64,000 bases of DNA from an uncultured Armatimonadetes bacterium (GCA_963716175.1 OY970296.1:2624001-2688000), one strand, 5' to 3'. Positions 6,937 to 64,000 are shown, numbered from the stretch's first letter. Numbers and translations: made by a program. The notes: generated by a model from the letters alone, not told the origin.

Positions 6937-6941
6937 AGGCT

Positions 6942-8306: not shown

Positions 8307-8307
8307 C

Positions 8308-13515: not shown

Positions 13516-14787
13516 GACTCACCATCGTGAACAGCGGCGCACCAGGCACCGCTTCCGTGCTGGCCCCGTTCTTCGAAGCGGTGGCGGAGGAGCCCGGCGT
13601 CGAGCTGGTGGTGTTGGAGCAGACGCCGGCCCGCGAGTGCAGTCGCGTGGCGGCAGGGCCGGTTCCCTGCGGTCGCTATCGCCTATTCAGGTTGCCGACC
13701 TACTGCTATCAGCGGCGCCATGCCTGCGCCCAAGTGCTGGCGCCGGGGTACCGTCGGCTGCTCGCCGCTAGCCAACCTCACGTCATCTGATGTTCTGGGG
13801 GAGCCGGGGTATCTGAGTACCTTTCAGGTGATGAGATCCGCGTGGCACTGGCTCCCCCAGACCAAGCTCTGCCTGCTCGCCGCTCAGAATGTGTATCAAC
13901 GCTTCCCTCCGCCATTCCCGTTGATGGAGCGCCATGTGCTGGCGCACCTTGACCACGCCTTCGTCCTGGGGCGCGATCATGAGCAGGTGCTCCGGCGCAA
14001 GGGCTATCGCGGCCCAGCCACTCCTCTGCCACTCGGGGTAGACACCCAGACCTTTGCGCCCGATGGGCCCCGCCTGCTTCCGGGAAGGCTGCATCTGCAG
14101 CGGCCGGTCGTGGGATACGTGGGGGATTTCCTGCCCGCGCGCAATCTGCCATTGCTGATCGAGGCGGTGAGCCAGCGCCGCAGCCCGGCGGGCCTCCTCC
14201 TGGTCGGTGACGGTGCCAGCAGGCCTCGGTTGGAGAGCCTGGCGAGCCGGAGAGGGCTGGATGGCAAGGCGAAGTTCGTGGGGCGCGTGCCTCACGCTCA
14301 GGTGCCAGCCTACCTCAATGCTATGGACATTTTCGTGCTTCCGAGCAAGCCGGTGCGCAACCGCTGCTTCGGCCTCTTCCACATCGCCAACGCCGAGCAG
14401 TTCGGCCGCGTCCTGGTGGAGGCGATGGCCTGCGGCAAACCCGTGGTGGGATCCTCCTGCGGTGAGATCCCCCATGTCATCGGCAACGCCGGGAGAGTGT
14501 TCCCGGAAGGAGACGTAGCCGCGCTGACCCGGGTCCTGGATGAGCTGTGTTCCGATCTGTCGTTGCGGGAACAGCTGGGCCAGCGAGGCCTGACTCGCGC
14601 CCGTGCCCACTACGACTGGCGCGTGATCGCCGCGCGCTTCCTGGCCGAGGTGCAGAAGATGCTGGCGCCAGTGCCCGCCGGCCCGCCCCGTGTAGGGCGG
14701 GCGTGCCTCCGCCCGCCACCCGCCCCCCGGGGCACGGAGGCCTGGGCTAGGGAGAAGGTCGGCGCAGGCGGTAGAGCTGCTCGATGA
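13512..14787 (+). pseudogene. Glycosyltransferase family 4, frameshifted near 13788 as assembled
   Basis: N-terminal ORF 13512-13790 ends at QPHVI. The next frame continues DVLGEP...PLGVD...EQFGRVLVEAMACGKPVVGS. Removing one T in GTCATCTGATGTT restores the frame. Confidence 0.85.
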
Positions 14788-16294: not shown

Positions 16295-16440
16295 CTGTCC
16301 CTCCGAGAGGCGAGCAAGCTGCTGGTCGTCTTCGGCGCACTCTCCCAGCCTCCTGGCGCCGCTTGACCGACTTGGCGTCCCTTGTGTTACACTCTGGCCT
16401 GCAGCTTGCACCCATGATCGCGCGATGTGAATATGAGACG

Positions 16441-40146: not shown

Positions 40147-40749
40147 CTACCTCTTCGCCGCCGTGCTATCCCAGCGGGCGCGCGATGTTATCAGCCAGGA
40201 CATCACGAAGAGCCGGAAATCCAGCCAGAGACTGCGATGGCGGAGGTAGTAGAAGTCATACTTCAGCTTCTCGGCGGCCTCCGTGTGATAGCGCCCGTAG
40301 ACCTGGGCCACTCCGGTGAGACCAGGACGCACCTGATGGCGCAAGTGGTACCCCGGGATTTCCCTCAGGAAGCGCTGCACGAACTCCGGCCTTTCCGGGC
40401 GAGGACCCACCCAGCTCATGTCTCCCTTGAAGATGCTGAGGAGCTGTGGTACCTCGTCCAGGGCTGTCCTGCGCAGGAGGCGGCCCACCCGCGTGATCCT
40501 GGGGTCATCCACCGCCGCCAGCCGCGGCCCAGATCCCTTCTCGGCCTCTCGGATCATGGAGCGGAACTTGTAGGCGCCGAAGATCCGCCCGCCCCGGCCC
40601 ACCCGCGTCTGGCGATAGAGAATAGGCCGCCCATCCTCCAGCAGGATGGCCGCGCCGACCGCCAGCCAGCAGGGGATGGAGGCGGCCAGCGCGAAGCCTG
40701 CGACCAGCATATCGAGGGCTCTCTTCAGTGCGTCGTTCAGCTTCGCCAT
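40147..40749 (-). CDS. Bacterial sugar transferase (monotopic phosphoglycosyl transferase)
   Basis: KRALD, KFRSM, DPRITRVG, LDEVPQL, GPRPERP, PGLTGVAQV. Confidence 0.92.
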   Translation of the reverse strand: MAKLNDALKRALDMLVAGFALAASIPCWLAVGAAILLEDGRPILYRQTRVGRGGRIFGAYKFRSMIREAEKGSGPRLAAVDDPRITRVGRLLRRTALDEVPQLLSIFKGDMSWVGPRPERPEFVQRFLREIPGYHLRHQVRPGLTGVAQVYGRYHTEAAEKLKYDFYYLRHRSLWLDFRLFVMSWLITSRARWDSTAAKR

Positions 40750-41118
40750 GGTCTTGGCTAGGCCCCTCGCGCCGCCGGGGCGGCCGCTATGGGCGACCTA
40801 GGGGTTGGCTGAACTGCAGCCAGCCGGACCTGGAACGGCCCCATCTAACATCAGTTCGGCTGATGTCGCTGGCGGTCCTGCCTTCAGCGGAGATCAGGCC
40901 AGGGCGATCGCGGTATCGGCCCGAGCCGTCGCTGAGCCCGGCCCGGTCGCCTGGGCAGGAAGTGCCAGCCGGAGCGCCGTATCACAGCTATGAAGGCTGC
41001 ATCAAGACTCGGCGAGCCCTCGCTCGCCGCAGGCGCGTTGGCCTCGATGCAGCCCGGTTGCGGCCTCTGTTAGGGAACCGCGGGACTCGGTCGGCGGGGA
41101 AGCGAGTGGAGGTTAGCA

Positions 41119-47382: not shown

Positions 47383-50300
47383 CTACCGCCGATCGCCCTG
47401 GGGGATCACAAAGCCGAACCGGGACTCTGTAGTCCACTTGCGAAAACGCGGGTCGGACGCCCAGTTCGCGTAGCTGTCAACGATCGCCTCGCGGAGCTGA
47501 TAGCGGTCGGTCTTTCCGTTCTCTGACACCGCGGCCTCCCCGCCTACCGGGCCGGTGCGGTCGAAGCGAACCTCGATCGCGCGACCTCCCAGGCTGAGCC
47601 TGACCCCTGCCGCGCGGTCCTCTTGGATGAGCTGCATCGCGGGCAGCGGCGCGTCTCCGCCCCCGGCCCGCATTACCACCAGGTACTCTACCTGGTCGCT
47701 CTGCTCCGCGGGCGCGATCTGGAGCAGCTTCTGGTCCTTCCACACCCATCCCAGGTCCATCGGTGGAGGTGTCGCGATCACCGCGCGCGGGCAGCAGCAC
47801 CCGACCCGTCAGGTACTCCGAGCCGCCTTTCACCGCGAAGGTATCGCCGCTTGCGGTCAGAGTCGGCGCGGTCGTGGCCACCCAGGCCGTCTTGCGTCCG
47901 GCCGGTCCGAGCTTCACCCGATCGTAGATCACGATGAAATCCGGCTTCAGGAAGACCAACTGCCGGTCAATCTGCGAGACCTGGTCCGCCGGCCACGCAT
48001 TCGAGGCGTCACCTGCCACGTAGTCAAGCTGCGGCCAGGTCTGATAGGCGAGCAGTCGTCCCTCCCGCATGAACAGGGTCTCGGTGTGGCCGTGCAGATC
48101 GAGTCCGCCTCCCCAGCCCTGCTCCGCAGGCTTGTAGCCGAACATCTTCTGGTTACGGCCAAGATAAGTGAAGGCGGCCGGCGAGAAGCGGTTGATCACC
48201 AGGTGCTCGCCATCCCGAGGTTGGGTCAGGTTCAGCGCCCACTGTTCCTGCCAGGCATCGTTGACCACCACCGAGTTGGCCCAGGCAGCCACCATGTTGC
48301 CATCGTCCCACAGCAGCGCGGGCGTGCCGATCAGATAGCTGCCGGCCTTGACGACGGTGAAGTGGTTGGGCTTGTGGCGCGTGGTGTGGTCCCTCACTCC
48401 CGAGGCGAAGGTCACCTCCGTCGCCTTTGCCTCCCAGCCGGAGCGCATCATCGCCCAGCCTTCCATATCGAAGACCGCGGTGGTCGGGATTTCCTGCCAC
48501 GTCACCTGCGGCGCCTCTGGCTCGTACCAGCCCAGAGCCAGCGCGACCGGCACCGCCACGCCGGAAGTGAAGTAGTTGACGCCGCCCCTCAGCGGGCCGG
48601 TGAGCGCCATCTTGTCCAGCGCCATCAGCCTATCCACCTGGGCCTGCTCGTCGCCCGTCATGGGGCCGTCCAGCTTTGCGATCCACTCCTCCCACTGATA
48701 GTTTGACTTCTCCAGCGGATGGCGGGAGAGCGTCGAGAGAATCCAGCGCCAGGGCTCACCGCTGGGGCCGCGCCGGCCCGGCTGCAGTTCCTGGATATCC
48801 CGGTAGGGATCGGCATACCGCTGGAAGGTGAGATAGCCGCTGAACAACGGCTTCTCGAACATCCGCGGCTCGCCGAAGATGTTGTGCAGGTACATGAACG
48901 TCAGCATGTACCCCGCGATCGGGCAGTAGCAGCCGGTGTACGGATTGGACCACCACACGCCGCCGCGCGTGCCGCGGTGCGCCTCGAAGTACTGCTCCGC
49001 GTTGCTCTCCAGGGTCATGATCTTGTAGATCAGCGCCCTCTTCTCGGGCGTGAGCGGGTCCTCGAGCGTGACCAGTGTCCACGGCAGCGTGTTGACATCC
49101 CCCGCCGCCGCGGCCATCTGCTGGTACAGCTTCAGGCTCGCCCGCTGCTCATCCGGCGCCAGGTCAACCAGCGACGCCTCCGCGCCTGGGAAGAACGGCC
49201 CGTGGTGATGGTATTGAACGTAGCCGTCGGTCTTCTCCGCGTTCCGCAGCGCCTCCACCTTCGTCCGCAGCTTCTCGCTGTCCGGCTTCAGGAAGATCGT
49301 CGCGAACTCAGCCGCCAGCATCCGCCAGCCCAGCTCGTACATGCGCCAGGCACAGGCCTCGTGCTTATCCCAATCTGGCATCCCCTCGGGCGCGACCGCC
49401 TCCAGCTCCTTTGCCGTCATACCCGCAGGCAGGAATCGCTCCGGAAGTCGGCCTTCCTTCTGGCTCATGCGCTCCAGCCAGTCGGCGTAGCGCCGGAACA
49501 GGTTCGGGTGCTGCGCGATGCGCGCCTGGATTGCTGCCGCCTCCTCCTTCCGCCAGAACATCCGCGGGTGCTCCAGCTTGGGCAGCTTCAGGAAGCGCAC
49601 CTGCCTGGTCACCTGTCCATCCGGCGTGTCAATGGCCACTGTCAGTGTGAAGCGCCCGGTGCCTTTCGTGGCCGGCGCAATCGCCAGGCTCAGCGTCTCT
49701 CCCGAGAGCGGCTCCAGATCGGTGCTGCCGGTGTAGGCAGTCTCGCCCATGTAGTCGCGCAGGGCCCACGACAGCCGCGCAGACAGTGGGACCGGGCCGC
49801 GGTTCGTCACGTGGAGCGTGAACAGGGCCGGTTCTCGGTCGTAAAACACGCCCTGGTACGAGGCCAGTGGTACGTTTCCGTGCACCTGCTGCGGCTTGGG
49901 CAGAAGCGTCACATCGAGCTGCGGCTCCGGCGACCGGCGCACCGCCACTGCCTGGAGCCGGGCGAAGGGGCTGTTCGCCCTCACACGCAGCAAGTGCTGG
50001 CCGGGCTCCACGCGCAGGGCGGGAGCGTTATAGCGCCAGAACTCCTCGCTGTCGTTCACCAGGAACATCTCACTGTCCGGCGCCATCCAGGTCGCCGAGG
50101 CCCAGTTCATCTCCGGGCCGCCGTCAACCGATACGGTGATGGTCCCCGCTTCATCTCTCCCGGTCAGTGGGCGGTCCGGCAGCAGCTGTGGGTCGGCGAG
50201 CGCGCTGAGATCAACCCAGCGCTTCCCGTCCACGCCCACGACTAGCTCGTTGGTCGCCGAGAAGCTCTTGCTCGCGCCGGCGGCTGCCACACTGACGGCA

Positions 50301-51973
50301 CTCCGCGTCCGTGCCGCCTCCGCGGTCTCCACCGGCGCGGGCTTCGGCTGAAGTGTGGCCAGATCGAGCGCCACGGGACGGTACTCCACGGCCACGCGCG
50401 GCTGAAGCGCCAGCGGAATCCGCTCATCCGCCATCACCGGCCACCAACCGGTGTTCGGCATGGCCACGAACTTCACCGCGCGCGCCTCCGCGCCGAGCGG
50501 CACGCGCTTGACGATCTGCTTGGTGGCCAGATCGACCGCCGCGAGATCGTTGCTCTGCCGGCAGATGATGTAGAGCCGATTGACCAGCTTCGGGGGCCAG
50601 GGGTCGCTTCGCTGCGGGTTGACATCACCGACAACGGCGAGACTCCACGGCTGGCCCGGCACGCTGATCTGGGACTCGACCTTGCGCGTCTTCGGGTTGA
50701 ACACGATCGCGCGGCCACCCGCGGCATCCGTTATATATAGCTTCTCATTCGCGAGCGTCATCGCCGAGAGGTAGCCCCCGATCCTGAAGGAGGCGAGCGC
50801 GCCAGACTTGTGGTCATAGACGCCCAGCCTGCCCAGGCTCGGCGCCAGGAACCACGTGGAGTACACCTTGGGATCGCCAGTGCCGTATTGGACGAGCGCT
50901 GCCGGCCCAGGATTGTCGCCGAAGCGGCTGACGATGCCCAGCAGCGCGATCCCGCGGGTGACCTCACTCACGTCGAAGACCCGGCGCGCCTTATTGAAGC
51001 CCACCTCGGCAAACTGGTGTCGTCCCGCGGGCTCGACCCATGAGCAGTCGCAGTCAGGGCCGCCGCACCCGGGCGGCGGCTTGCCATTGGATTCAGTGCT
51101 GACGAACTGCTGCTCGCCAGCTGGCGCCGGCTCCAGGGTGAACACGTCGAAGGGCTGCTGCTGGAAGCGCACGATCAGCCGTGCGGGCGGATTGCCCACC
51201 AGCTCGACGTTGATGGGCTGGGCCGGGAGGTCAACCTCGCGAATCATCTTCCCGGTCGCCGTGTCGAACCCCACCAGCCGCCTGCCGTCGCGGCAAGCCA
51301 CGTAGAGCACGCCGCCATGCAGCGCCAGCGACCAGGGCGTACCTGGCACGCTCATTGCTCCGAGGGCGGTACGCGTGTTCGCGTCGATTGCAACCACTCG
51401 GTCGCCGAGCGCATCGGCGATATACACTCGCCCCTTCTCCCGGTCGGCGACGATGTCGGCGACATAGCCCCCCACCTCGATCGCAGCGATGGGCTTCTCC
51501 GTCGCCGCGTCTATCGCGATCACCCGGCCCGCTGCCGGAGCGCTGGCGAACACGGTTGTGCCCACGCAGTCGAGCGCGTCCGGCCCGGGCTGGCGCACCA
51601 ATGGGTAAGGGAATCGCTTCGCCAGCTTCTGCTCGCCGGTTGGCCACCAGACGGGCCGCACTCGCAGCGTGGCGGGCCGATCAGTCTCGAATGGGAAGAT
51701 GAGCGCCGCGCCCGCCGCCGCGGGGTTGCCCGCCGTGGATGCGGCGGGCTGCAGGTAGCGCTCACCGGCCCCATTGGGACCACCCACCTCCCAGGCGCCC
51801 TCACGATCGGCCTGTTCCGCCGGCCAGATCGTCCACCCAGCCGCCTTGGGCATGGGGAAGGTCTGGGCCGCCGTGGCCTGCCGCCCCGACACAGCACCAA
51901 GCGCGCCCAGCGCTAGGGCGAGGGCCAATGCGGCTGGGAGCAAACGGAACAAAGATCGGCGGTGATGGAGCAT
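47383..51973 (-). CDS. Large secreted protein: YVTN-like beta-propellers plus heparinase II/III-like lyase module, frameshift near 47785
   Basis: Signal peptide, repeated GRVIAIDAAT / DRVVAIDANT blades, EHPRMFW, MMRSGW..., YVAGDAS, RQLVFLKPDFIVIYDRV. The true C-terminus continues in ORF 47383-47781. Confidence 0.7.
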
Positions 51974-52088
51974 GGGATCCCTCTCGCGGTCTGGTTTGCC
52001 GGCTCGCAGCAGAGCCGCCAACCTTTCAGGCGGCCCGGGTGGGGCCACCCCCCAGTTGGCACTAGAGCAGGCAGCGATCCGCAACATG

Positions 52089-52097
52089 ATTATAGCA
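52089..52097 (-). promoter_or_regulatory. Extended -10 promoter element for the large secreted protein
   Basis: TGCTATAAT on the minus strand about 115 nt upstream of the ATG. Confidence 0.45.
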
Positions 52098-52396
52098 GCG
52101 CTGTCAAGAGGGGAGCTTACGGAACCGCCGATGGACCCGGCAACAGCGGCGGGCATGCAGAGATGGCTAGGTCGCCAAGGGCAACCGCTGGCTAAGCCCG
52201 CCCTCGGCGGGCCGCCATCCCGGCCTTCAGGCCTAGGGACATGGCGGCCGGAGGCCTAGCCACATGCCCGCCCCACAACCGCTTACAGGATTCTGGGCCG
52301 GCCTGCCGAACTCACAGGAGTAGAGGCGTCCTCCGTGACCGCAGCGAGGCGTTGGTGGCAGAAGGCGTCAGGACGGCAGGACAGGGGAGAACCGCG

Positions 52397-53916: not shown

Positions 53917-54160
53917 TTCCAGCCTCCTGTCCACGGCTATCATACTGTGGCTGGATTCTGCGTCTCGACGCTCTTCTCCCCTTACAAAGACAGCCACTGG
54001 TCACATAGGCCTGGCGAGACAGGCCAGGGGCCGGCAGGCTCAAGGCGCGGCCCGGGCTGACCGACAATAGCTAAGGGTGCCTACGGGCTGTATCACGGCC
54101 CAGTCAGCGAGCGCTGAGAGCGTCTTGCTGGGCTTCGGTTCTGGCCAGCACCACAGGGCA

Positions 54161-57130
54161 ATGCACCATATATCGCATCAGGCTGTTCTGGCGAGTGGGC
54201 TGCTACTGGCTGGCTTGGTGGCAGTCTGCATCATCCTGCTTCTGGAGCGAGCCGAGGCCCGCCGTCGGTGTGCCGCTGAGGTACTCAGGGCCAAGCGAGG
54301 CCTGGAATGCGAGATCGCGGAGCGCGAGCGCGCGGAGCAGGAGGTGCGGGAATCGGAGCAGAGATACCGTACGCTGGTGGACTCCGCGCCCGATCCCATT
54401 TTCGTGCTCAGTGAAAGTGGTGAGTTCCTGGCCGCAAACCAGGAGGCCGGGCGCGTGATCGGCAGAACCGCCGAGCAGGTGGTCGGGTTCAGCGTGCCTG
54501 AGCTGTTTCCTCCGGCGGTGGCCGACCAGCAGATGAGCGCCATTCGGGAAGTGTTCAAGACCGGCATGCCGCTGGTACCGGATACCGTGCTGATCCCCGG
54601 TCCGGAGGGTGATCGATGGTACTCGCCCAGGATCGCCCCCCTTAGAGATGCCCAGGGCAAGATCACCTCCGTGCTGGGCATCGCCCGTGACATCACCAAG
54701 CGCAAGCAAGCAGAGGAGGTGGAGCGAATCAGCAACAGCAGGTACCGCACGCTGATAGAGGCCCTCCCGCAGAAGATATTCCAGAAGGACCAGAACAGCG
54801 TCTACGTGGCCTGCAACGAGAACTACGCGAGGGACTTGGGGATTACCCCTGCCGAGGTTGCGGGAAAGACGGACTACGATTTCTTCCCCAGGGAATTGGC
54901 CGATAAGTACAGGGCGGACGACACGGCAATGATGGCATCGGGGAAGACGGCGGAGTTTGACGAGGCCTATCTCGAAGATGGCGAAAAGAGATTCGTACAT
55001 ACGGTCAAGACCCCGGTCAAAGACGAAGACGGAAACGTCACCGGCATCCTGGGGATATTCTGGGATATCACCGCGCGCAAGCAGGCCGAGGAGAAGCTGG
55101 CGACCGCCTACCGTCAGTTGGAGGAGACCAACAACGAGCTGAGACGCGCCATCGCCCAGACGAACGACTTGGCGATCCAAGCCGAGAAGGCGAGCATCGC
55201 CAAGAGCCAGTTCCTGGCCAACATGAGCCATGAGATCCGCACCCCCATGAATGCCATCATGGGCATGGCGGAGCTGGCGCTCGACACCAAGCTCACCTCC
55301 GAGCAGCGCGAGTACCTGATTGCGGTGCGCGAGTCGGCCAACTCTCTCCTGGATCTGATCAATGACATCCTCGATCTGGCCAGGGTGGAGGCCGGCAAGC
55401 TCGACCTGGAATTCATAGACTTCCACCTGCGGGACAGCCTGGGTGACGCGCTGAAGGTGCTCGCCCTCAGGGCGCATGAGAAGGGGCTCGAGCTAGCCTA
55501 CGAAGTCTGCCCCGAGGTGCCAGATGTGCTCCGGGGCGATCCCAGACGCCTCCGCCAGATCGTCACCAATCTGGTGGGCAATGCCATCAAGTTCACCGAG
55601 CAGGGCCAGGTGGTGGTTCGCGTGGAAGCGGAGTCGGAGACGGAGGAGGAGGTCGGCCTGCACTTCTCGGTCGCTGACACGGGGATTGGCATTCCCGAGG
55701 ACAAGCAGCGGATCATCTTCGAGGCCTTCGCCCAGGTGGACAGCTCCGCCACACGGCGCTATGGCGGCACGGGCCTGGGCCTGACCATCTCCGGCCAGCT
55801 CATAGCGGAGATGGGCGGCCGGATATGGGTGGAAAGCAAGGTGGGGGAGGGCAGCACGTTCCACTTCGCCGTCCCCCTGGGCCGGGGAAAGCCGGTGCCG
55901 GCCCTGCCTGCACAGCCCTCGGACATGAAGAATCTGCCCGTGCTGGTGGTGGACGATAACACCACAAACCGCGGCATTCTGGCACACATGCTCACGAACT
56001 GGGGCCTGAAGCCAAGGACGACCGGGGAGGCGCAGGAGGCGCTGGCCGCGATGCGAGAGGCGACGCAGACCGGGCAGCCCTTCGCCTTGGTGCTGCTGGA
56101 TGTCCAGATGCCGGGGATGGATGGTTTCGCGGTGGCCCAGCAGATCAAGGATGATCCTGAGCTGGCCGGGACCAGGATCATCATGCTCACCTCTTCCGGG
56201 CGGCGAGGCGATGCGGCGCGCTGCCGGAAGCTGGGGGTTTCGGGTTACCTCACCAAGCCGGTCAAGCAATCCGAGCTGTGGGAGGCCATCATGACGACAC
56301 TCGGCCTGCCCGCCTCGGCTACCGAGCCGGCACCTCTCATCACTCGGCACTCGCTGCGGGAGAGCCGCCGCCGACTCCGCATCCTGCTCGCCGAGGACCA
56401 TCCGGTCAACCAGAGGGTCGCGGTCCGGATGCTCGAGAAGCGAGGGCACCTGGTGGTCGTCGCCAGGAGCGGCAAGGAGGCGGTTGCTATCGCCAGGGAG
56501 CAGCCGCTCGATCTGGTGCTGATGGATGTGCAGATGCCGGAGCTGGACGGATTCGAGGCCACTGCCGCCATCCGGGACCAAGAGAAGGCGACTGGAAAGC
56601 ATCTGCCGATCATCGCCATGACCGCTCATGCTATGGAAGGGGACCGAGAGCGTTGTCTCGCCGCCGGCATGGACGGATACGTGGCGAAGCCGGTGACCGC
56701 GAGAGGGCTCTTCGAGGCGATCGAGAGTGTGGCTCCGGCAGCGCGTGGGCCGGAGCTGGCGTCGACCGGAACCGGAGAGGCCGAGGAAGTGCTGGACAGG
56801 GATGCGCTGCTGGGCAGTGTGGAGGGCGACATGGACCTGCTGAAGGAGATCCTCGACCAGTTTGGGGAGGACCGCTCGAAGCTGCTATCAGAGATACGGA
56901 GTGCGATCTCCTACGGAGATGCGGAGGCGTTGGAGCACACCGCCCACACTCTCAAGGGCGCGCTGGGCGCGCTCGGGGCCAAGCGCGCCTTCGATGCCGC
57001 GCTCAGGCTGGAGATGATGGGACGCCGCGGCGATCTCTCGCGGGCGGGTGAGGCCAGTGCCGAGCTGCAAGAGGAAATCGAACGCCTGCAGCCGGCGCTC
57101 GCCGCGTTGGCAACAGGTGAGGTCAGGTGA
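54161..57130 (+). CDS. Hybrid histidine kinase (TM-PAS-PAS-HisKA-HATPase-REC-REC-Hpt)
   Basis: FLANMSHEIRTPMN, NLVGNAIKFT, GGTGLGL, two receiver domains, AHTLKG. Start is uncertain. Confidence 0.93.
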   Translation: MHHISHQAVLASGLLLAGLVAVCIILLLERAEARRRCAAEVLRAKRGLECEIAERERAEQEVRESEQRYRTLVDSAPDPIFVLSESGEFLAANQEAGRVIGRTAEQVVGFSVPELFPPAVADQQMSAIREVFKTGMPLVPDTVLIPGPEGDRWYSPRIAPLRDAQGKITSVLGIARDITKRKQAEEVERISNSRYRTLIEALPQKIFQKDQNSVYVACNENYARDLGITPAEVAGKTDYDFFPRELADKYRADDTAMMASGKTAEFDEAYLEDGEKRFVHTVKTPVKDEDGNVTGILGIFWDITARKQAEEKLATAYRQLEETNNELRRAIAQTNDLAIQAEKASIAKSQFLANMSHEIRTPMNAIMGMAELALDTKLTSEQREYLIAVRESANSLLDLINDILDLARVEAGKLDLEFIDFHLRDSLGDALKVLALRAHEKGLELAYEVCPEVPDVLRGDPRRLRQIVTNLVGNAIKFTEQGQVVVRVEAESETEEEVGLHFSVADTGIGIPEDKQRIIFEAFAQVDSSATRRYGGTGLGLTISGQLIAEMGGRIWVESKVGEGSTFHFAVPLGRGKPVPALPAQPSDMKNLPVLVVDDNTTNRGILAHMLTNWGLKPRTTGEAQEALAAMREATQTGQPFALVLLDVQMPGMDGFAVAQQIKDDPELAGTRIIMLTSSGRRGDAARCRKLGVSGYLTKPVKQSELWEAIMTTLGLPASATEPAPLITRHSLRESRRRLRILLAEDHPVNQRVAVRMLEKRGHLVVVARSGKEAVAIAREQPLDLVLMDVQMPELDGFEATAAIRDQEKATGKHLPIIAMTAHAMEGDRERCLAAGMDGYVAKPVTARGLFEAIESVAPAARGPELASTGTGEAEEVLDRDALLGSVEGDMDLLKEILDQFGEDRSKLLSEIRSAISYGDAEALEHTAHTLKGALGALGAKRAFDAALRLEMMGRRGDLSRAGEASAELQEEIERLQPALAALATGEVR

Positions 57131-58056
57131 AAATCCTGGTGGTGGACGACCAACCCGTGTATCGGCGCCTGATCGAGGCCGCGCTGCGGAAAGCGGGCCA
57201 TGGGTTGACGGTGGTGGCCGACGGCGAGCAGGCCTGGGAGACGCTGGAGCAGGAGGAATACGATCTGGCCGTGCTGGACTGGCTGATGCCGGGGATGGAC
57301 GGCGTCACCCTCTGCCGGCGACTGCGGCAGAGAGTGGGGACGCGCTACCTCTACATCGTCATCCTCACCGCCAAGGACGGGCTTGCTGATATGGTGAAGG
57401 GACTGGATGCAGGGGCCGACGAGTACCTGGTCAAGCCATTCAACCCCGAGGAGCTTCGCGCTCGCGTCCGCGCTGGCGGGCGGATTGTGGAACTGGAGCG
57501 GAGGCTGTCCCAGGCCAATGCGCAGCTCGCCGCCCTTGCTTCCACGGACGAACTCACCGGGCTGATGAGCCGCCGCGCCATTCTCCGACGACTACAGGAG
57601 GAGATCGGCCGCAGCCTGCTGGAGCGCCGCCGCCTGAGTGTAGTCCTGGTGGACCTGGACGGCTTGAAGCAGATCAACGACAGGTACGGACATGCCGTGG
57701 GAGATGCTGTCCTGAAGGAAGCCTCCCATCGGCTGACGGCCCTGCTTCGCCGCTACGACAGCCTGGGCCGACTGGGCGGAGATGAGCTGCTGCTCCTGCT
57801 CCCAGGCTCCAGCGAGACCGAGGCCTCAGGGATGGCCGAGCGGATGCGAGCAGCCCTGGCCGGGCGGCCCTTTCCGATGGAGCCGGACCTCTCTGTGCAA
57901 GTCACCGCAGGCTTCGGCGCGGCCGAGGTGGATGAGGCCGGCGATAGCAAGACCGTCTTGCTGCGAGCAGACGAGGCGCTTTACCAGGCAAAACGCCAGG
58001 GCGGGAACGCCGTCGGTGTCGCCTCTTCAGTGCTGGCAGGCGAGGCGACAGAGTAG
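57127..58056 (+). CDS. Response regulator diguanylate cyclase (REC-GGDEF)
   Basis: Receiver domain, DELTGL, KQINDRYGH..GD, RRYD I-site, GGDEL, ADEALYQAK. Confidence 0.9.
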   Translation: MKILVVDDQPVYRRLIEAALRKAGHGLTVVADGEQAWETLEQEEYDLAVLDWLMPGMDGVTLCRRLRQRVGTRYLYIVILTAKDGLADMVKGLDAGADEYLVKPFNPEELRARVRAGGRIVELERRLSQANAQLAALASTDELTGLMSRRAILRRLQEEIGRSLLERRRLSVVLVDLDGLKQINDRYGHAVGDAVLKEASHRLTALLRRYDSLGRLGGDELLLLLPGSSETEASGMAERMRAALAGRPFPMEPDLSVQVTAGFGAAEVDEAGDSKTVLLRADEALYQAKRQGGNAVGVASSVLAGEATE

Positions 58057-58070: not shown

Positions 58071-59378
58071 TCACCCCAGCAGCCAGCCGAGCATGGCTGC
58101 GGCCAGGTGCGAGATCTCCGCGTGGTCGGAGACTGGCAGGAGCGTCCAGACGAAGGCGTCATCCCAGGTATGCATTCCCTGAAAGTGGGTCCTGGCGAAG
58201 ACCTCTTTTCCCTTCGTGCTGCCCTTGAGATCGAAGCCGTTACGGCCGATGGCCACCAGGTCGGGGCCATGCTGCGACCTTGCTCCCCGGTAGATCTCAT
58301 CCCGGGAGAAGACGCGCTCGATCACGGGCTCTCCCTCCCAGGTCAGATGGCGCAGGCCGTGGGCCAGCTCCTCGCGCAGCGGAGGCGCCTCCTCGGGGCC
58401 TACGCATCCCCTGGCGAAGCGGCCGCGCAGATGGAGGTAGATGCGTCCCGGGTCGAGGGCAAAGGCGCGGGAGGCGGCCGCGAGCTCAGCCACGGAGGCC
58501 GGCTCCTGCTGCTCGTAACTGAGATAGCCGTGGTCCCTCAGCCAGGCATTCACCCTCACCTCGTGCTCGACCGCGGTGAACCCGTGGTCCGACAGCAGCA
58601 GGACTCCCTCGCCCTCGCGGTCCCCCGAGCGGCCCTCGTGGAACCAGTCCCAGATGTCGCCGATCAGCGCGTCCACGGCCCGGTAATAGCGCATCGCCTG
58701 CTGGTGCCGGGGGTGGTCGTCCTGCTCGACCGCGCTCCAGAGGAAGTGGTGCAGGCGATCGGTGCCTGTGAGCACCACCTGGAAGTAGTCCCAGGCCTCT
58801 CGCTCCCAGAAGTACCGCGCCGCGCGTGCCCGCGCGGCCAGAGTGGCATCGAGCTCGGCGAGCAAGGCATCGGGGTCCTCGCGGGCGCGCTCGGTGCTGA
58901 CATCGACGCGGTACCCCATCCGCTGGAGGGCCGGGAGGTGCTCCTTGGGCCACACGCTCTTCGCCAGATCGGGGGCGACGAAGCCGGAGACGAGCGCGCC
59001 GGGCACCGGGCGCGCGGGGTAGGTGGCGGGCTGGTTGATGATGCAGCAGCGCCGCCCGGCCTCGCCCAGCCGATCCCAGAGTGTGGGCACTGCCAGATCG
59101 CCGAACCCCGGGAAGCGCAAGCGGTAGCTGTCCGCGGAGACGTCGGTGAAGCCGAAGATGCCATGCTCCCCCGGGTTGGAGCCGGTCATGAAGGAGGACC
59201 AACTGACGGAGGAAACCGGGGGAAGGGAGGCCCGCATCTGCCTGAGGCCTCCGGCCCGGATGATGTCGGCGGTGCGCGGCATCACGGACTGGTGCGCGAG
59301 CCGTTGCAGCAGCCCGATCGGCACCCCGTCCAGCCCCACCACGCAGACCCGCCTCTTGCTGCGGCGAGAGAAAGGCAT
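58071..59378 (-). CDS. Alkaline phosphatase superfamily protein (nucleotide pyrophosphatase/phosphodiesterase-like)
   Basis: GLDG, PPVSSVSWSSFMTGSNPGEHG, DRLHH, SDHGF, GMH. Confidence 0.85.
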   Translation of the reverse strand: MPFSRRSKRRVCVVGLDGVPIGLLQRLAHQSVMPRTADIIRAGGLRQMRASLPPVSSVSWSSFMTGSNPGEHGIFGFTDVSADSYRLRFPGFGDLAVPTLWDRLGEAGRRCCIINQPATYPARPVPGALVSGFVAPDLAKSVWPKEHLPALQRMGYRVDVSTERAREDPDALLAELDATLAARARAARYFWEREAWDYFQVVLTGTDRLHHFLWSAVEQDDHPRHQQAMRYYRAVDALIGDIWDWFHEGRSGDREGEGVLLLSDHGFTAVEHEVRVNAWLRDHGYLSYEQQEPASVAELAAASRAFALDPGRIYLHLRGRFARGCVGPEEAPPLREELAHGLRHLTWEGEPVIERVFSRDEIYRGARSQHGPDLVAIGRNGFDLKGSTKGKEVFARTHFQGMHTWDDAFVWTLLPVSDHAEISHLAAAMLGWLLG

Positions 59379-59410
59379 GACTCACCCCGGCTTGGTCGCC
59401 TCTGGCGACC

Positions 59411-60013
59411 TCAGATATAGCCCAGGTCGCGCAGCCGCTGCTTGATGCTCTCCTCTTCCTCTTCGCTGTAGCCACGGGTGTCACCGGCCGGGATATACCC
59501 CATCGTCTCCAGCGTGCCGATGATTTTGCCCACCGAGGTGTCAACGTCTTCCCGCCCGGTGTCGCAGACCACCTCGGGATGCTCCGGTGGCTCGTAGGGA
59601 TCGCTGACGCCAGTGAAGTGGGCGATCTCTCCTCGCAGCGCTTTCTCGTAGAGGCCCTTGGGATCGCGCGCGGTCAGGATCTCCAGGTCGCACTTGCAGT
59701 AGACCTCCACGAACCGGCCCACCAGCCTTCGGTTCTCCTCCCGGATCTCCCGGTAGGGGGAGATGGCGGCTGCTATCGCCACCACATCGTTGCGAGTAAG
59801 CAGGTGACAGATGAACCCGATGCGGCGGATATGGGTGTCGCGATCCTCCTTCGAGAACCCCAGCCCCTTGCTCAGGTTCAGGCGCACCACATCCCCGTCC
59901 AGCACCTCCACCTTCATCCCCCGCTCCAGCAGGATGTCGCGCACCTGCTCGGCCAGGGTGCTCTTGCCCGAGCCCGGAAGACCTGTGAACCAGAGAGTGA
60001 ATCCCTTCGCCAT
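59411..60013 (-). CDS. cysC: Adenylyl-sulfate kinase with extra acidic-LGY C-terminal tail
   Basis: [42 protein letters not shown]. Confidence 0.95.
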
Positions 60014-60023
60014 GTCCCGCCTT

Positions 60024-61403
60024 TCAGATGATGGACTCGCCGATCATGTCCGCTGGCACTGCCACCCCAAACCACTTGAGAATGGAGGGCGCCACATCGT
60101 AGATGCGATACCGCTCGGCCCGCCGCGGCGACCAGCCGGGCCCAGGATCCCAGGCCAGCACTCCGTCCGGGAGGTGGTTGGCATCGTCCGGCCCGGTATC
60201 GTTCTCCCGCTGGTGGACGGCTCCCATCCCCACCGATCCCGCGGAGCGCCAGTCGAGATCGCCGAAGTAGACGATCAGGTCGGGCGCGATGTTGTTCACT
60301 TCCCGGTAGACCTCTTCCGGGCGGAACACCCGGGTGCCGATGGGAGCCTGGCGCTCGTCCCCCAGCGCCTCCAGGCCGGCCTTCACCTCCTCCCGGACTC
60401 GCTCGTACGCGCCTGGAGGAATGCATCCCTGCGGCTCCCGGCCGGCCACATTGAGGAAGATCCGCCCGTAATAGCCTCCCTCTCCCCAGGCCCTGGTATG
60501 GGGCCAGTCAACCATCTGGGGAGCTAAGGGCACTCGCCGCGCGGGCTGCTCTTTCAGCTTCAGGTAGCCCTGCTGCTGGAGCCACTCGTTGACGCAGATC
60601 GCCCCCTGCATCGCCTTCGCGCCATGGTCGGAAACCACCAGGAAAGAGGCGCCGTCCCCGGCCGCCTCCATGGTTCTGCCGATCTCCTCATCCAGGCTGA
60701 GATAGTAATCGTGCAGCACGTGCTGATAGGGATTGCCCGGCTGGTAGAGCCGATGCTCCGGGTCGCAGAACCGCCAGAAGCCGTGCTGGAGCCGGTCCGG
60801 CCCCATTTCCACCATCATGGCGAAGTCGAAATCGTCGCTCTTCAGCAGCGCCCGAAAGGCGCGGAAGCGCGCCGCGGTCATCTTCTTCACAGACGCCAGC
60901 AGGGCTGCTTTGTCCTCGGTGCGGAAGTCCTTGACATCTATCACGTACTCGCCGCCGGCGGCCTGATCCAACACCTCTTGAATCGCGGCCGGATAGGTGA
61001 AGGACACCTCTTTGCTCGGCGTGGTGAAATCGGACACCATGATTCCATGCAGGGGCTGAGGCGGGTAGGTCTGGGGCACGCCCATCACCAGCGACTTCAG
61101 GCGGCCGCGGGAGAGGTAGTTCCATACCGTGCGGGCTTTGATGGCGGTGGCGTTGGTCACGCGCAGAGCGTCGTACTCGTAGCTGGCGCGATTGCGGAAC
61201 CCATACACCCCCAGCATGCCGGGGTCCTTGGAGGTCATCATGGCCGTCCAGGCCGGGACCGTGATGGGGGGGATGGTGGAGTGCAGACGTCCGGATGTTC
61301 CCCGGCTCGCCAGCGCCTTGAGATTGGGCATCTCGCCCAACCAGGCCTCGAGCGCCCACTGGGGAGTCAAGCAGTCCAGTCCGATCACCACCAGGCGCTT
61401 CAT
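60024..61403 (-). CDS. Alkaline phosphatase superfamily protein (nucleotide pyrophosphatase/phosphodiesterase-like)
   Basis: [36 protein letters not shown]. Confidence 0.85.
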
Positions 61404-62560
61404 GCCTCTTCTCTCCGGCGCATGCTCTCGGTCAGGATCTGAGCCACCTCGGCCCGGGTGAACTGGGCCGGGGGCAGCTCTCCCGCGGCCAGCATCTGGC
61501 GCACCCTGGTGCCGCTGAGCGTGACATGGTCATCGGGGCCGTGCGGGCAGGTCTTGGTGGTCGCCATATTCTCGCACCGCCGGCAATAGAAGGCGTGATC
61601 GAAGAATAGCGGCGTGATCGCGATCTCGTCGGGCTCGAACTCGCCGAAGATGGCGTGAGCGTCGAAGGGCCCGTAGTAGTTCCCCACGCCGGCGTGATCG
61701 CGACCCACGATGAAGTGGGTGCAGCCATAGTTCTTGCGGATGAGAGCGTGGAAGATGGCCTCCCGGGGCCCCGCGTAGCGCATCGCCGCGGGGAACACGG
61801 AGAGCACCACGCGGTCGCGCGGATAGTAGTGCTCGATGAGGGCTTCATAGCAGCGCATCCGCACCTCGGCCGGAGTGTCATCGGCCTTGGTCTCTCCCAC
61901 CAGGGGGTGAATCAGCAGGCCGTCGGCCAGCTCCAGCGCACACTTCTGGAGATATTCGTGGGCGCGATGGATCGGGTTCCGGGTCTGAAAGGCGGCAATC
62001 CGCTGCCATCCCTTGGCGACGAAGAGCACGCGCGTCTCCTTGGGCTGCAGGCGGTAGCGAAGGAAATCCCGGTGTTCCGGCGCGCGAATCAGGTGAATGC
62101 GGCCACCCAGGTAGACGGGCGATATGGAGTTCAGGTACTGCACCCCGGGGTGCGCCCCATCGGTGGTGCGCAACACCAGCTGGGCCTCATGGTCGTGGTC
62201 CACCCGGTAGCGGTCCGCCACCTCCATCACCGCCAGGGCGCGGCCTCCCTCATCCACCAGCGCGGCCTGGCTCCCGGGCTTCAGCTCCTCGTGCTCGGCC
62301 TGCTTCGCCGAAAGCACCACCGGGATGCTCCACACCAGGCCGCCGGCGAGGCGCATGGACTCCACCACACTGTGGTAGTCGGCGCTGGTCATGAATCCTT
62401 CGAGCGGGCTCATGGCCCCATAGGCGATCATCTCAACATCCGCCAGCTCCCGCTCGTTCAGAGCGATCTTCGGCAGATGCTCGGCCGCCTGCGCCAGCCG
62501 CTCCCGCTCTCCGCCCGAGGCGGTGCGGTCAACCAGCTTGCCACCATGTGGGCTGATCAT
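61400..62560 (-). CDS. sat: Sulfate adenylyltransferase (ATP sulfurylase)
   Basis: PHGGKL, SPLEGFM, AFQTRNPIHRAHEY, MRYAGPREA, HFIVGRDHAGVG, SGT. Confidence 0.96.
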   Translation of the reverse strand: MISPHGGKLVDRTASGGERERLAQAAEHLPKIALNERELADVEMIAYGAMSPLEGFMTSADYHSVVESMRLAGGLVWSIPVVLSAKQAEHEELKPGSQAALVDEGGRALAVMEVADRYRVDHDHEAQLVLRTTDGAHPGVQYLNSISPVYLGGRIHLIRAPEHRDFLRYRLQPKETRVLFVAKGWQRIAAFQTRNPIHRAHEYLQKCALELADGLLIHPLVGETKADDTPAEVRMRCYEALIEHYYPRDRVVLSVFPAAMRYAGPREAIFHALIRKNYGCTHFIVGRDHAGVGNYYGPFDAHAIFGEFEPDEIAITPLFFDHAFYCRRCENMATTKTCPHGPDDHVTLSGTRVRQMLAAGELPPAQFTRAEVAQILTESMRRREEA

Positions 62561-62596
62561 GCTATCGCGAGTCCATTCCGGCAACCATAGGGTTGA

Positions 62597-62727
62597 CTAG
62601 AGCGCATTTCATAGCCTACCTGCTGGCTGGCCGCACCACGCCCTCGCACGAAATGCGCCTGCCACTGCCTGACGTTGTGCAGTGCTGCTTCATAACCTCC
62701 CCTGGGAAGGTTATGAAACAGCTTCTA
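62597..62727. mobile_element. 131 bp MITE-like element, copy 2 (inverted relative to copy 1)
   Basis: Reverse complement of 3752-3882 with a few substitutions. Confidence 0.8.
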
Positions 62728-62775
62728 ACTGAGAGTCATAGTTTAGCCCACGGCGGGGCAACGTCCTGCCGGCCC

Positions 62776-63597
62776 CTACACCTGCACCCGCAGTGGGCCT
62801 TTGAGGGCATAGCCGAAGATTAGCGACAACACCAGCCAGGGCCAGATCCAGTGCATCCGCCAGCCGCGCAAGCGCAGCCAGGCGTCCGGGTATGAGACTT
62901 CAACCCAGGCTGCGGGCCCAGCCGCGGCCAGGGGAGGCTCCCCCGGGTTGAGAAGCTGCGGCCAGACCCCATCGTCCACGCGCCGCGGTGCCACCCGGGT
63001 CATGTGGTCGCCCACCACGATCTCTTTGGTGAACTCCACTCCCTGCACGGCGAAGCGCAGCTCGTGTCTGCCGGGAGCAACCGCTCGCACCCGCCAGTCC
63101 ACCTCGCCCAAGGCCGGCATGCGCAGCGCCGGCGTCTCTACCCTGATACCCGGTGGTGCGGAGATGGTCACGTCGTCCACCGGCCCCGCCTCCGGACGGA
63201 TCTCCGCCGCCACTATCGCTTGCTCGCCCACGCGCAGGGGCCGATGCCCATAGCGCAGATCGGCCTGGAGAAGGAAGATCCCGACCGGAAGGATCATGCA
63301 GGCCAGCGGCACCAGGGCATAGCCGAGATAGCGCAGATCATCCACGAATACGCCGGCCTGGGAGCGCAGCACCACGGACAGCTCATCGCGGTAGAGCCAG
63401 ACTGCCAGCAGATGGGCGATGATCCGGTCCTTCGCGGCACGGATGCCGCGCTGGTTGGAGGTGTAGCGAAAGATCAGCAGCAGGACCAGGCCGGAAAGCA
63501 GCGAGATCGCCACGATCCCGAGCCAGGGGTTGGCTCGGGCGAAAGGCGCGAAGAACAGGTCGAACCCGCGTGTGATCGCGGCGTTGATCATCGCCAT
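62776..63597 (-). CDS. Membrane protein, DUF106/EMC3-like topology with inserted beta domain
   Basis: Amphipathic N-helix, TM1, helical hairpin, TM2, Ig-like insert, then terminal TM WIWPWLVLSLIFGYALK. Confidence 0.55.
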   Translation of the reverse strand: MAMINAAITRGFDLFFAPFARANPWLGIVAISLLSGLVLLLIFRYTSNQRGIRAAKDRIIAHLLAVWLYRDELSVVLRSQAGVFVDDLRYLGYALVPLACMILPVGIFLLQADLRYGHRPLRVGEQAIVAAEIRPEAGPVDDVTISAPPGIRVETPALRMPALGEVDWRVRAVAPGRHELRFAVQGVEFTKEIVVGDHMTRVAPRRVDDGVWPQLLNPGEPPLAAAGPAAWVEVSYPDAWLRLRGWRMHWIWPWLVLSLIFGYALKGPLRVQV

Positions 63598-63602
63598 ATG
63601 AT

Positions 63603-63682
63603 GTAGGGCAGGAGCGGAAGCGGCTAGGCCTGCTTCGCAGGCCGCCGCCCCGGCTGCCTCAGGCAGCCTAGGGGCTCCTGCC
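63603..63682. repeat. Nested REP-like hairpin
   Basis: GTAGGGCAGGAGC...CCTAGGGGCTCCTGCC, with the same outer stem as the hairpin at 25470-25522. Confidence 0.7.
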
Positions 63683-63696
63683 TCCTCCGTCGAAGT

Positions 63697-63888
63697 TCAG
63701 TCCAGATAGCCCAGACCCTGCAGGCGCTTCCTGATCTCCTCCTCCGTCTCGGCCTGCTCCAGCACGGCCGCCGCCTTCTCCAGAGCGTGGCGGATGAACT
63801 CCTCGGTGGAGGAATACCCGGCGGCCTCGGCGCAGCGCGCCAGCCGCTGGTAGAGGTCCCGGTCGAGCTTGATCTTGGGGCCGAACAT
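63697..63888 (-). CDS. 63 aa protein, ribbon-helix-helix-like N-terminus plus LGY tail
   Basis: KIKLDRDLYQRL...GYSSTEEFIRHAL then ETEEEIRKRLQGLGYLD. GAGGA RBS. Confidence 0.75.
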   Translation of the reverse strand: MFGPKIKLDRDLYQRLARCAEAAGYSSTEEFIRHALEKAAAVLEQAETEEEIRKRLQGLGYLD

Positions 63889-63898
63889 GATCTCATCC

Positions 63899-64000
63899 TC
63901 ACCAGATAGGTTTCCCGGACATGCCCTCCGCGACCGGGAGGCCGAATTCCGCCAGCAGGCTGGCGGTCACATCCGGCAGACCCGGGCTGAGCGCGCGGAT
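63899..64000 (-). CDS. C-terminus of a probable alkaline phosphatase superfamily protein (continues beyond window)
   Basis: IRALSPGLPDVTASLLAEFGLPVAEGMSGKPIW parallels [25 protein letters not shown] of 60024-61403. Confidence 0.6.
   Translation of the reverse strand: MRALSPGLPDVTASLLAEFGLPVAEGMSGKPIW

Follow-up and report, generated by a model that had tools for sequence, protein, structure and literature searches.

Positions 58071 to 64000 of a 64,000-nucleotide stretch of DNA from an uncultured Armatimonadetes bacterium (GCA_963716175.1, OY970296.1:2624001-2688000; hereafter the window) carry a minus-strand gene cluster for sulfate activation. In this cluster, the genes for ATP sulfurylase (sat) and adenosine 5'-phosphosulfate (APS) kinase (cysC), whose products make 3'-phosphoadenosine 5'-phosphosulfate (PAPS), are interleaved with genes for alkaline phosphatase (AlkP) superfamily proteins (Pfam accession PF01663). 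The linkage of sat and cysC to these genes is real, ancient and widespread. Gene order, natural fusions and co-occurrence all link AlkP459, a 459-residue protein whose gene separates sat from cysC, to Sat and CysC. We see about an even chance that the cluster is a bacterial, expanded form of a PAPS-making cluster known from archaea and that AlkP459 pulls the Sat reaction forward. The role of the AlkP enzymes is probably to clear by-products and not to transfer sulfate.

Families were assigned from Pfam and NCBIfam profile matches with curated cut-offs. The curated models identify Sat and CysC as bona fide, and each is encoded by a single copy genome-wide. The order of transcription is AlkP679, RHH63 (a ribbon-helix-helix protein), Mem273 (a membrane protein), sat, AlkP459, cysC and AlkP435 (Table 1). 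Open reading frames (ORFs) and profiles thus reproduce the order given in a preliminary description made from the window alone, which had also reported short gaps and an overlap between sat and the following gene. The sat stop codon and the AlkP459 start codon indeed overlap as ATGA, and by coordinates 10 bp separate AlkP459 from cysC and 32 bp separate cysC from AlkP435. The window lies within a single 4.56-Mb contig (contig C1 of genome G000). Extension to the right, as that description had proposed, established that the cluster continues past the window: AlkP679 was completed and a fourth PF01663 paralogue, AlkP701, was added, its 3' end sharing 8 bp with the start of AlkP679. To the right of AlkP701 come two sulfatase-family genes, a gene for an ankyrin-repeat protein and glycosyltransferases. 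Against a PF01663 cut-off of 23 bits, AlkP459 scores 146.1, AlkP435 130.2, AlkP679 130.4 and AlkP701 108.2. Promoter and terminator scans returned nothing useful above shuffled expectation.

AlkP459 is a cytoplasmic enzyme of the nucleotide pyrophosphatase/phosphodiesterase (NPP) type and the most conserved member of the module, evolving as slowly as Sat. At least 8000 relatives score E < 1e-10; identity to AlkP459 is 59-99% among the 120 of them that were listed. In a reading of the translations, both AlkP459 and AlkP435 begin directly at the first strand and its metal-ligand Asp and lack a hydrophobic leader; the preliminary description had stated that they lack signal peptides. The nucleophile position of AlkP459 (motif PPITVPAW) is Thr in 81/81 sequences, and D10, T48, R70-N71-R72, D203, H207, D259, H260 and H410 are invariant in the same 81, with the Asn bracketed by two invariant Arg. 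These columns appear to correspond to the NPP catalytic residues, namely the ligands of two metals, the Thr nucleophile and the Asn. The two flanking Arg would suit a substrate more charged than a diester. The AlphaFold model has a mean pLDDT of 73.7, with low confidence in the active-site loops, and its Foldseek matches include ENPP6, ENPP7, PhnA and Xac NPP at E values of 1e-10 to 1e-11 and TM-scores of 0.38-0.52. The ENPP6 match (5egh_B) has an E value of 1.9e-11 and TM-scores of 0.46-0.52; the entries for PhnA and Xac NPP are 1ei6 and 2gsn. Identity to solved members of the NPP/PhnA branch is 11-16%, and a PDB sequence-profile search with AlkP459 returned no chain at E <= 0.01.

These residues bear on two arguments of the preliminary description. 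The Thr nucleophile had been taken as a pointer to chemistry like that of LtaS and EptA, a pointer that does not hold up: Thr with a predicted two-metal site and Asn looks like the standard NPP catalytic set rather than a departure from it. A Thr nucleophile is normal for the NPP family and is therefore no sign of unusual chemistry. The formylglycine sulfatase motif C/S-x-P-x-R is absent from AlkP459 and AlkP435, as stated, and is not expected in them, because both proteins belong to PF01663 rather than to the sulfatase family (Pfam accession PF00884).

We identified 593 AlkP459 relatives in a one-genome-per-species scan and kept 80 loci, several of which end at contig ends. Of the 80 loci, 25 encode Sat and 29 encode CysC within 3 kb of AlkP459; at least one of the two is present at that distance in 37 loci, and both are present in 17. 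The distance from AlkP459 to AlkP435 is at most 6 kb in 17 loci, and seven hold the complete set of CysC, AlkP435, AlkP701, AlkP679, RHH63 and Mem273. Conservation of the neighbourhood, which the preliminary description had proposed to check, thus extends over about ten phyla. Linked loci come from Latescibacterota, Krumholzibacteriota, Eisenbacteria, Acidobacteriota, Thermodesulfobacteriota, Zixibacteria, Chloroflexota, Schekmanbacteria, Brocadiaceae and Armatimonadota. In a quick maximum-likelihood tree, the unlinked AlkP459 clades are mainly from Poribacteria and Actinomycetota, and well-supported branches force at least six changes between the linked and unlinked states. The unlinked Poribacteria genes adjoin DegT, GNAT/FemAB-like and sulfatase genes.

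AlkP459 is also found fused to Sat. We identified 269 homologues longer than 805 aa at E <= 1e-30, and all 120 listed combine the PUA_2, ATP-sulfurylase and Phosphodiest domains in proteins of roughly 820-912 aa. Pfam confirmed the fusion in one representative (P0121), and the only four fusions with a named organism belong to Anaerolineae and Roseiflexaceae. A Sat-NPP fusion is apparently undescribed in the literature searched.

Co-occurrence was scored in 50 of the 80 genomes (27 linked and 23 unlinked) and in 14 control genomes, including Haloferax volcanii. APS kinase (Pfam accession PF01583) was present in 50/50 AlkP459 genomes (27/27 linked, 23/23 unlinked) and 11/14 controls, and Sat-type sulfurylase (Pfam accession PF01747) in 46/50 (27/27 linked, 19/23 unlinked) and 5/14 controls. 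PAPS_reduct (Pfam accession PF01507) was found in 27/50, but its distribution is uneven: 7/27 linked, 20/23 unlinked and 13-14 of the 14 controls. Sulfotransfer_3 (Pfam accession PF13469) was found in 34/50 (15/27 linked, 19/23 unlinked) and 2/14 controls. Several unlinked genomes encode CysC beside PAPS_reduct genes, as in assimilation. Because PF01507 is rare in linked genomes and has no match in the window genome, the linked clusters are dedicated to something other than cysteine synthesis.

A cluster with the same core has been described in Thermococcales and other archaea, whereas literature searches for the bacterial cluster itself returned nothing relevant. In Pyrococcus yayanosii, PYCH_17520-17560 encode CopG, ATP sulfurylase, a DHH-family phosphatase (pApase) of 3'-phosphoadenosine 5'-phosphate (PAP), a type I phosphodiesterase/nucleotide pyrophosphatase and APS kinase. 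Degradation of pyrophosphate (PPi) is the role that the authors tentatively suggest for the phosphodiesterase-family protein (PYCH_17550), and they remark that no sulfotransferase or sulfite-reducing enzyme is identified (PMC8268124). The cited section on Thermococcus onnurineus lists TON_1704 as APS kinase, TON_1705 as pyrophosphatase, TON_1706 as PAP phosphatase and TON_1707 as ATP sulfurylase (PMC4463584). A published table gives TON_1705, as an inorganic pyrophosphatase, a pH optimum of 9.5, a kcat of 2.1 s-1 and a Km of 18.8 uM (PMC9653972). Because the gene orders reported for the two archaeal clusters match, TON_1705 would be the PF01663 protein. By its shared family name and its same gene position, AlkP459 would be the counterpart of TON_1705 and PYCH_17550.

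We propose the following scheme for the bacterial cluster. Sat would form APS and PPi in a reaction with an unfavourable equilibrium. AlkP459, whose translation is coupled to that of Sat in this genome and which forms a fusion with Sat in others, would hydrolyse PPi at its two-metal Thr site and so pull APS formation. CysC would convert APS to PAPS while docked on AlkP459 through an extra C-terminal helix, the three enzymes forming one assembly. RHH63 would be a regulator of the cluster, or an adaptor bearing the same tail. The PAPS would then serve to sulfate an envelope polymer or lipid, probably a polymer. The window genome fits hydrolysis of PPi by AlkP459: the soluble family-I pyrophosphatase (Pfam accession PF00719) has 0 matches, and a membrane-bound proton-pumping pyrophosphatase (H+-PPase) is encoded at genome positions 529568-531583.

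CysC carries the C-terminal extension invoked here, and the NF002059 profile stops at residue 174 of its 200. The extension ends in a tail with the consensus Y-S, an acidic run and I-K-x-R-L-x-x-L-G-Y-[IL] (the LGY tail), which duplicates the motif closing the last helix of the CysC kinase itself. In 13 sequences, R193, L194, L197, G198 and Y199 do not vary. The tail is present in 25 of the 29 complete CysC genes that adjoin AlkP459 and in 1 of 20 CysC from unlinked genomes. The same tail, ending in [LM]GY[IL] plus 0-1 residue, closes RHH63 in 12/12 complete orthologues. Across the window genome, 14 ORFs end in the LGY pattern, compared with 0-4 for permuted patterns. Nine of these ORFs are PF00884 sulfatase-like genes, out of about 16 in the genome, and they share the helix-plus-LGY tail of CysC and RHH63. 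The two of these that lie beside the cluster have, by reading, Thr at the sulfatase-motif position and no Arg. Thr-type sulfatase-like genes next to AlkP459 end in the tail in six loci as well (L014, L022, L024, L028, L048 and L052). The sharing of one tail by CysC, RHH63 and sulfatase-like proteins is apparently undescribed in the literature searched.

Structure prediction lends weak support to docking of the CysC tail on AlkP459. A complex of AlkP459 with CysC residues 171-200 is predicted with an ipSAE of 0.57 (runs of 0.57, 0.58 and 0.40; best control 0.03), in a range, at or below 0.60, where 7/80 solved complexes and both passing mismatched pairs fell and where passes are more often wrong than right. 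Overall, 58/80 solved complexes and 2/110 mismatched pairs reached the mark. At least 60% of contacts recur between runs, the partner has a pLDDT of 57 or more, and the verdict of the tool is weak support. The TPR domain of a Wzy_C-TPR protein encoded elsewhere in the window (41119-43560) is a candidate receptor for the acidic LGY tails.

Two further proteins belong to the cluster. RHH63 is encoded directly upstream of AlkP459 in four loci (L014, L018, L024 and L071), and copG is likewise the first gene of the published archaeal cluster. Mem273 was found in nine loci of the tblastn listing at 29-38% identity. Its model combines helices with an Ig-like beta-sandwich domain (pLDDT 84.9), for which Foldseek returned generic Ig-like domains and no PDB match at E <= 0.001. 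Its atlas matches are hypothetical clusters only, with a weak EMC3_TMCO1 lead at 0.85.

The other three PF01663 paralogues are of a Ser type. The preliminary description had read Ser at the nucleophile position of AlkP435 (motif PPVSSVSW) and Thr in AlkP459, and the alignments bear out both: Ser is conserved in 16/16 AlkP435 orthologues, and also in 10/10 AlkP701 and 10/10 AlkP679 sequences. All metal ligands are retained in the three families, and the NPP-type Asn is absent from them. Their N-termini, read across orthologues, suggest different locations. AlkP701 orthologues have a leader-like segment, a Y-[IV]-G-P-G-A-G-F-A motif, one transmembrane helix and a basic stretch in 10/10 rows (L003, L005-L011, L013 and L019), which suggests a membrane anchor with the enzyme facing the cytoplasm; the copy in the window genome lacks this N-terminus. 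Lipoprotein-, Sec- or Tat-like leaders in most AlkP679 rows suggest that AlkP679, which also has an inserted domain, is exported. Such a membrane-spanning set of Ser-type paralogues is apparently undescribed in the literature searched. AlkP435 is cytoplasmic and perhaps a PAP/PAPS phosphatase.

That suggestion can be widened to AlkP459: one or both enzymes could be PAP/PAPS 3'-phosphatases or APS/PAPS pyrophosphatases, which clear an inhibitory by-product or set the PAPS level. NPP enzymes cleave nucleotide phosphoanhydrides, and a dedicated pApase is reported in the cited descriptions of the archaeal cluster. The window genome has 0 matches to the inositol-phosphatase/CysQ family (Pfam accession PF00459), which was found in 14/14 controls. 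Replacement of CysQ by an AlkP enzyme is not borne out, as PF00459 is present in 48/50 AlkP459 genomes and shows no anticorrelation. We also identified a 707-aa protein (P0260, a single cluster representative with a gene call from protein only) in which an AlkP435-like PF01663 domain is fused to PAPS_reduct, an arrangement that would put a PAP remover beside a PAP producer. A first search among longer proteins had returned no AlkP435 fusion, in a length range above the roughly 640 aa of a CysC-AlkP435 fusion. Proteins from an exhaustive search are mostly 420-460 aa, and among the five longer ones scanned P0260 was the sole informative fusion. Hydrolysis of APS or PAPS beside Sat and CysC would, however, be a futile cycle, and in the archaeal cluster the pApase is a separate DHH protein, pyrophosphatase being the activity reported for the PF01663 protein. 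In two loci (L024 12961-13797 and L062 6888-7727), AlkP435 is accompanied by PHP-domain proteins of about 280 aa, which we take to be possible pAp phosphatases and which would be redundant with such an activity. Nucleotide hydrolysis as the function of AlkP459 or AlkP435 appears quite improbable to us.

The window encodes no PAPS/APS reductase, sulfite reductase or P-loop sulfotransferase, as first described; none was found among 36 further ORFs scanned. Genome-wide, PF01507 (PAPS_reduct), PF01077 (NIR_SIR) and PF00685 (Sulfotransfer_1) have 0 matches. As the genome holds neither a PAPS/APS reductase nor a sulfite reductase, PAPS therefore serves sulfation rather than cysteine synthesis. The joint absence of PF00719, PF00459, PF01507 and NIR_SIR from one genome is unusual. 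The preliminary description had allowed for a canonical reductase or sulfotransferase just outside the window; the genome has no reductase, but it does encode one sulfotransferase of PF13469, 2.6 Mb away. This protein has 248 aa and, from its P-loop-like GRGHSGTR and its RDPRD motifs, looks functional. Its operon (L082 6554-11795; G000:C1 at about 30.5-35.8 kb) also holds a sulfatase-family gene, two GFO/IDH/MocA oxidoreductases and a xylose-isomerase-like TIM barrel. No cluster protein matches PF00685 or PF13469.

The scarcity of PAPS consumers is one argument for the proposal of the preliminary description, in which one or more AlkP-superfamily enzymes act as a PAPS-dependent sulfotransferase or a sulfuryl relay. 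They would work through a covalent sulfo-Thr or sulfo-Ser intermediate, with an envelope glycan or lipid as the target. The candidates would be AlkP459, its Ser-type paralogues or the LGY-tailed Thr-type sulfatase-like proteins. Nine genomes (G001, G003, G004, G007, G010, G017, G020, G021 and G029) hold Sat/CysC and AlkP genes and no match to PF13469, PF00685, PF03567, PF17784, PF09037, PF19798 or PF01507, although all nine are metagenome bins of unstated completeness and three of the six sulfotransferase models matched no control genome. The P. yayanosii cluster is likewise reported without a consumer, in the part of that paper cited above. The catalytic set is complete in each of the four paralogue families, which differ in membrane location, the cluster often has polysaccharide genes on its flanks, PAPS_reduct is fused to a relative of AlkP435, and the CysC tail recurs on nine Thr-type sulfatase-like proteins and on such proteins beside AlkP459 in six loci.

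Nothing in the analysis itself indicates sulfuryl transfer, and we regard this proposal as rather unlikely. No AlkP-superfamily enzyme that acts as a PAPS-dependent sulfotransferase came up in our literature search. The NPP-type Asn is retained in AlkP459, whose evolution is as slow as that of Sat; this fits an invariant small substrate. The archaeal protein in the same position is reported as a pyrophosphatase. Canonical sulfotransferases occur in the window genome and in 34/50 AlkP459 genomes, and one is encoded directly beside AlkP435 (L027 13643-14470). AlkP679, if exported, would have no access to PAPS. We also considered Agl7 (HVO_2046) of Haloferax as a possible precedent; its deletion leaves the DolP-linked glycan unsulfated (PMC3892788, PMC3871713). 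The profile matches of the H. volcanii genome (PF01583, PF01663 and PF00884 present, PF13469 and PF00685 absent) do not settle whether it is one.

For the paralogues and for those sulfatase-like proteins that bear the tail, sulfuryl transfer is still a live idea, because the paralogues, the shared tail, the PAPS_reduct fusion and the missing PAPS consumers are left unexplained. In its extended form, the Ser-type paralogues and the LGY-tailed Thr-type sulfatase-like proteins would make up a new sulfotransferase class of the AlkP superfamily. A Sat-AlkP459-CysC assembly would feed them, the shared C-terminal docking helix would recruit them to it, and sulfate would be relayed from AlkP435 to AlkP701 to AlkP679 across the membrane. 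We consider this version unlikely.

Polysaccharide genes bear on the probable target. The preliminary description had placed a polysaccharide locus at 1-15 kb, and we found it at 1-16 kb (1907-16411), where it encodes a GNVR/Wzc-like kinase, a Bac_transf priming transferase, four GT2 and two GT1/GT4-type glycosyltransferases and PMT_2. A second stretch (40147-43560) encodes another Bac_transf protein and the Wzy_C-TPR fusion protein. In other genomes the cluster is flanked by genes for Wza/Wzc, exosortase, Wzy, GT2, GT9, DegT and UDP-glucose dehydrogenase. The loci at 1-16 kb and 41-43.5 kb and the flanking genes elsewhere fit sulfation of an envelope polymer by PAPS from the AlkP459-coupled pathway. 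They would also suit PF01663 enzymes that act on phosphodiester or phospho-substituents of the same polymer and are tied to sat and cysC by co-regulation only. PF01663 includes phosphoethanolamine transferases and phosphodiesterases, AlkP679 appears to be exported and AlkP701 to be membrane-anchored in orthologues. Natural Sat-AlkP459 fusions, the position of AlkP459 between sat and cysC kept across phyla, and APS kinase in 50/50 AlkP459 genomes argue against mere co-regulation, which we judge very improbable.

Several points weigh against AlkP459 as the Sat-coupled pyrophosphatase of an expanded archaeal-type cluster. First, the kcat tabulated for TON_1705 is low, so that PPi hydrolysis could be a side activity of an enzyme whose true substrate is another. 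Second, the putative orthology of AlkP459 and TON_1705 is drawn from the family name and gene position, and Pfam scans found no archaeal-type DHH pApase among the bacterial cluster genes. Third, a pyrophosphatase leaves unexplained why four paralogues remain intact on both sides of the membrane, what the Poribacteria AlkP459 genes do beside their DegT, GNAT/FemAB-like and sulfatase neighbours, and how nine cluster-bearing genomes use PAPS. Finally, the P0260 fusion, Mem273 and the CysC tail are also unexplained, and the predicted docking of that tail is weak.

Other genes were recorded in the window and beside the cluster in other genomes. Elsewhere in the window we found a 1559-aa ORF with no Pfam match (47477-52156, minus strand) and a DUF6785/DUF6784 protein (16219-18378, plus strand). 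A 1017-aa ORF and an overlapping 309-aa ORF (54077-58056, plus strand) converge on the 3' end of the operon and by eye resemble a hybrid histidine kinase and a response-regulator diguanylate cyclase. Accessory genes beside the cluster in other genomes encode a PF01663-TPR fusion (L010 6460-8733), a Na/sulfate symporter (L031 6755-8137) and an arylsulfate sulfotransferase (ASST; L058 3-2057).

Table 1. Genes of the sulfate-activation cluster and LGY-tailed sulfatase-like genes of the same genome. Positions are window coordinates unless the contig (G000:C1) is named.
Feature	Position	Strand	Profile match or remark
AlkP435, 435 aa	58071..59378	-	PF01663, E 1.7e-37; last gene of the operon
cysC, APS kinase, 200 aa	59411..60013	-	PF01583, E 2e-58; NF002059, 255.8 bits (cut-off 244)
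CysC C-terminal tail, residues 182-200	59414..59470	-	Y-S, acidic run, then I-K-x-R-L-x-x-L-G-Y-I
AlkP459, 459 aa	60024..61403	-	PF01663, E 2.6e-42
sat, ATP sulfurylase, 394 aa	61400..62584	-	PUA_2 and ATP-sulfurylase; NF003166, 559.5 bits (cut-off 387)
Mem273, membrane protein, 273 aa	62776..63597	-	No Pfam or NCBIfam match
RHH63, CopG-type ribbon-helix-helix protein, 63 aa	63697..63888	-	RHH_1, E 2.5e-5; C-terminus LGYLD, tail at 63700-63756
AlkP679, 3' end	63899..64000	-	PF01663 gene of 679 aa, extends to 65938 beyond the window
AlkP701, fourth PF01663 paralogue	65931-68036, beyond the window	-	PF01663; upstream of AlkP679
Tailed PF00884 gene beside the cluster	68057-69697		LGY tail
Tailed PF00884 gene beside the cluster	69719-71239		LGY tail
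Tailed PF00884 gene	G000:C1 361256-362791		LGY tail
Tailed PF00884 gene	G000:C1 409356-412007		LGY tail
Tailed PF00884 gene	G000:C1 1865250-1866743		LGY tail
Tailed PF00884 gene	G000:C1 2746665-2748329		LGY tail
Tailed PF00884 gene	G000:C1 2999689-3000642		LGY tail
Tailed PF00884 gene	G000:C1 3959527-3961218		LGY tail
Tailed PF00884 gene	G000:C1 4232152-4233639		LGY tail

The module deserves annotation as one unit: AlkP459 has at least 8000 relatives, and the module is spread over about ten bacterial phyla and has an archaeal counterpart. AlkP459-type proteins are currently named alkaline phosphatase family protein, phosphodiesterase or predicted AlkP superfamily phosphohydrolase/phosphomutase. 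If AlkP459 is a Sat-coupled pyrophosphatase, thousands of annotations could be corrected, and the Sat-NPP fusion would represent a PAPS synthase of a new form. PAPS is made in many of these genomes, as in Thermococcales, without a reductase or a recognisable sulfotransferase, and the paralogues and the shared tail are candidates for the missing step. Should the paralogues and tailed proteins form a sulfotransferase class, they would name the missing PAPS consumer in archaea and in nine bacterial genomes, and a relay through them would sulfate envelope polymers where no PAPS exists. Biofilms, granular sludge and sponge symbionts are settings in which sulfated exopolymers are important.

Comparison with known systems places each part of the cluster. 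AlkP459 resembles the NPP/PhnA branch (ENPP1-7, Xanthomonas NPP and phosphonoacetate hydrolase) in its PF01663 match, fold, metal ligands, Thr and Asn, and differs from it in being cytoplasmic and in having an invariant Arg on either side of the Asn. The three other paralogues depart further from that branch, carrying Ser for Thr and no Asn. Formylglycine sulfatases match PF00884 and carry C/S-x-P-x-R, whereas AlkP459 and AlkP435 match PF01663 and not the sulfatase profile. LtaS/EptA-type enzymes join a polytopic membrane domain to an extracytoplasmic Thr-bearing sulfatase fold, unlike AlkP459 and AlkP435, which belong to PF01663 and lack a hydrophobic segment. Canonical P-loop sulfotransferases (PF00685 and PF13469) draw on the same PAPS supply and are unrelated to the cluster proteins in fold and catalytic residues.

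Patron and colleagues are said to have described, in 2008, CysC-Sat-pyrophosphatase fusions of stramenopiles. Like these trifunctional PAPS synthases and the bifunctional Sat-CysC enzymes, the cluster would join PAPS synthesis and by-product removal in one protein or assembly. The partner of Sat is here of NPP type instead of a family-I pyrophosphatase, and CysC is separate, with a docking-like tail.

The closest system is that of Thermococcales. As described in the cited portions of the archaeal reports, it shares with the bacterial cluster a neighbouring CopG-type regulator, ATP sulfurylase, a PF01663-type protein and APS kinase and, in P. yayanosii, the lack of a sulfotransferase or sulfite reductase that would account for PAPS. 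The archaeal form has the DHH pApase, whereas no DHH domain was found among the bacterial cluster genes or the four upstream genes, the only ones scanned. The bacterial form adds three Ser-type PF01663 paralogues, a membrane protein and the LGY tail of CysC and RHH63; the Sat-AlkP459 fusion is a further addition, seen in Chloroflexota. An archaeal sulfate-activation cluster is thus already known, and the cluster described here is best filed as a bacterial variant of it.

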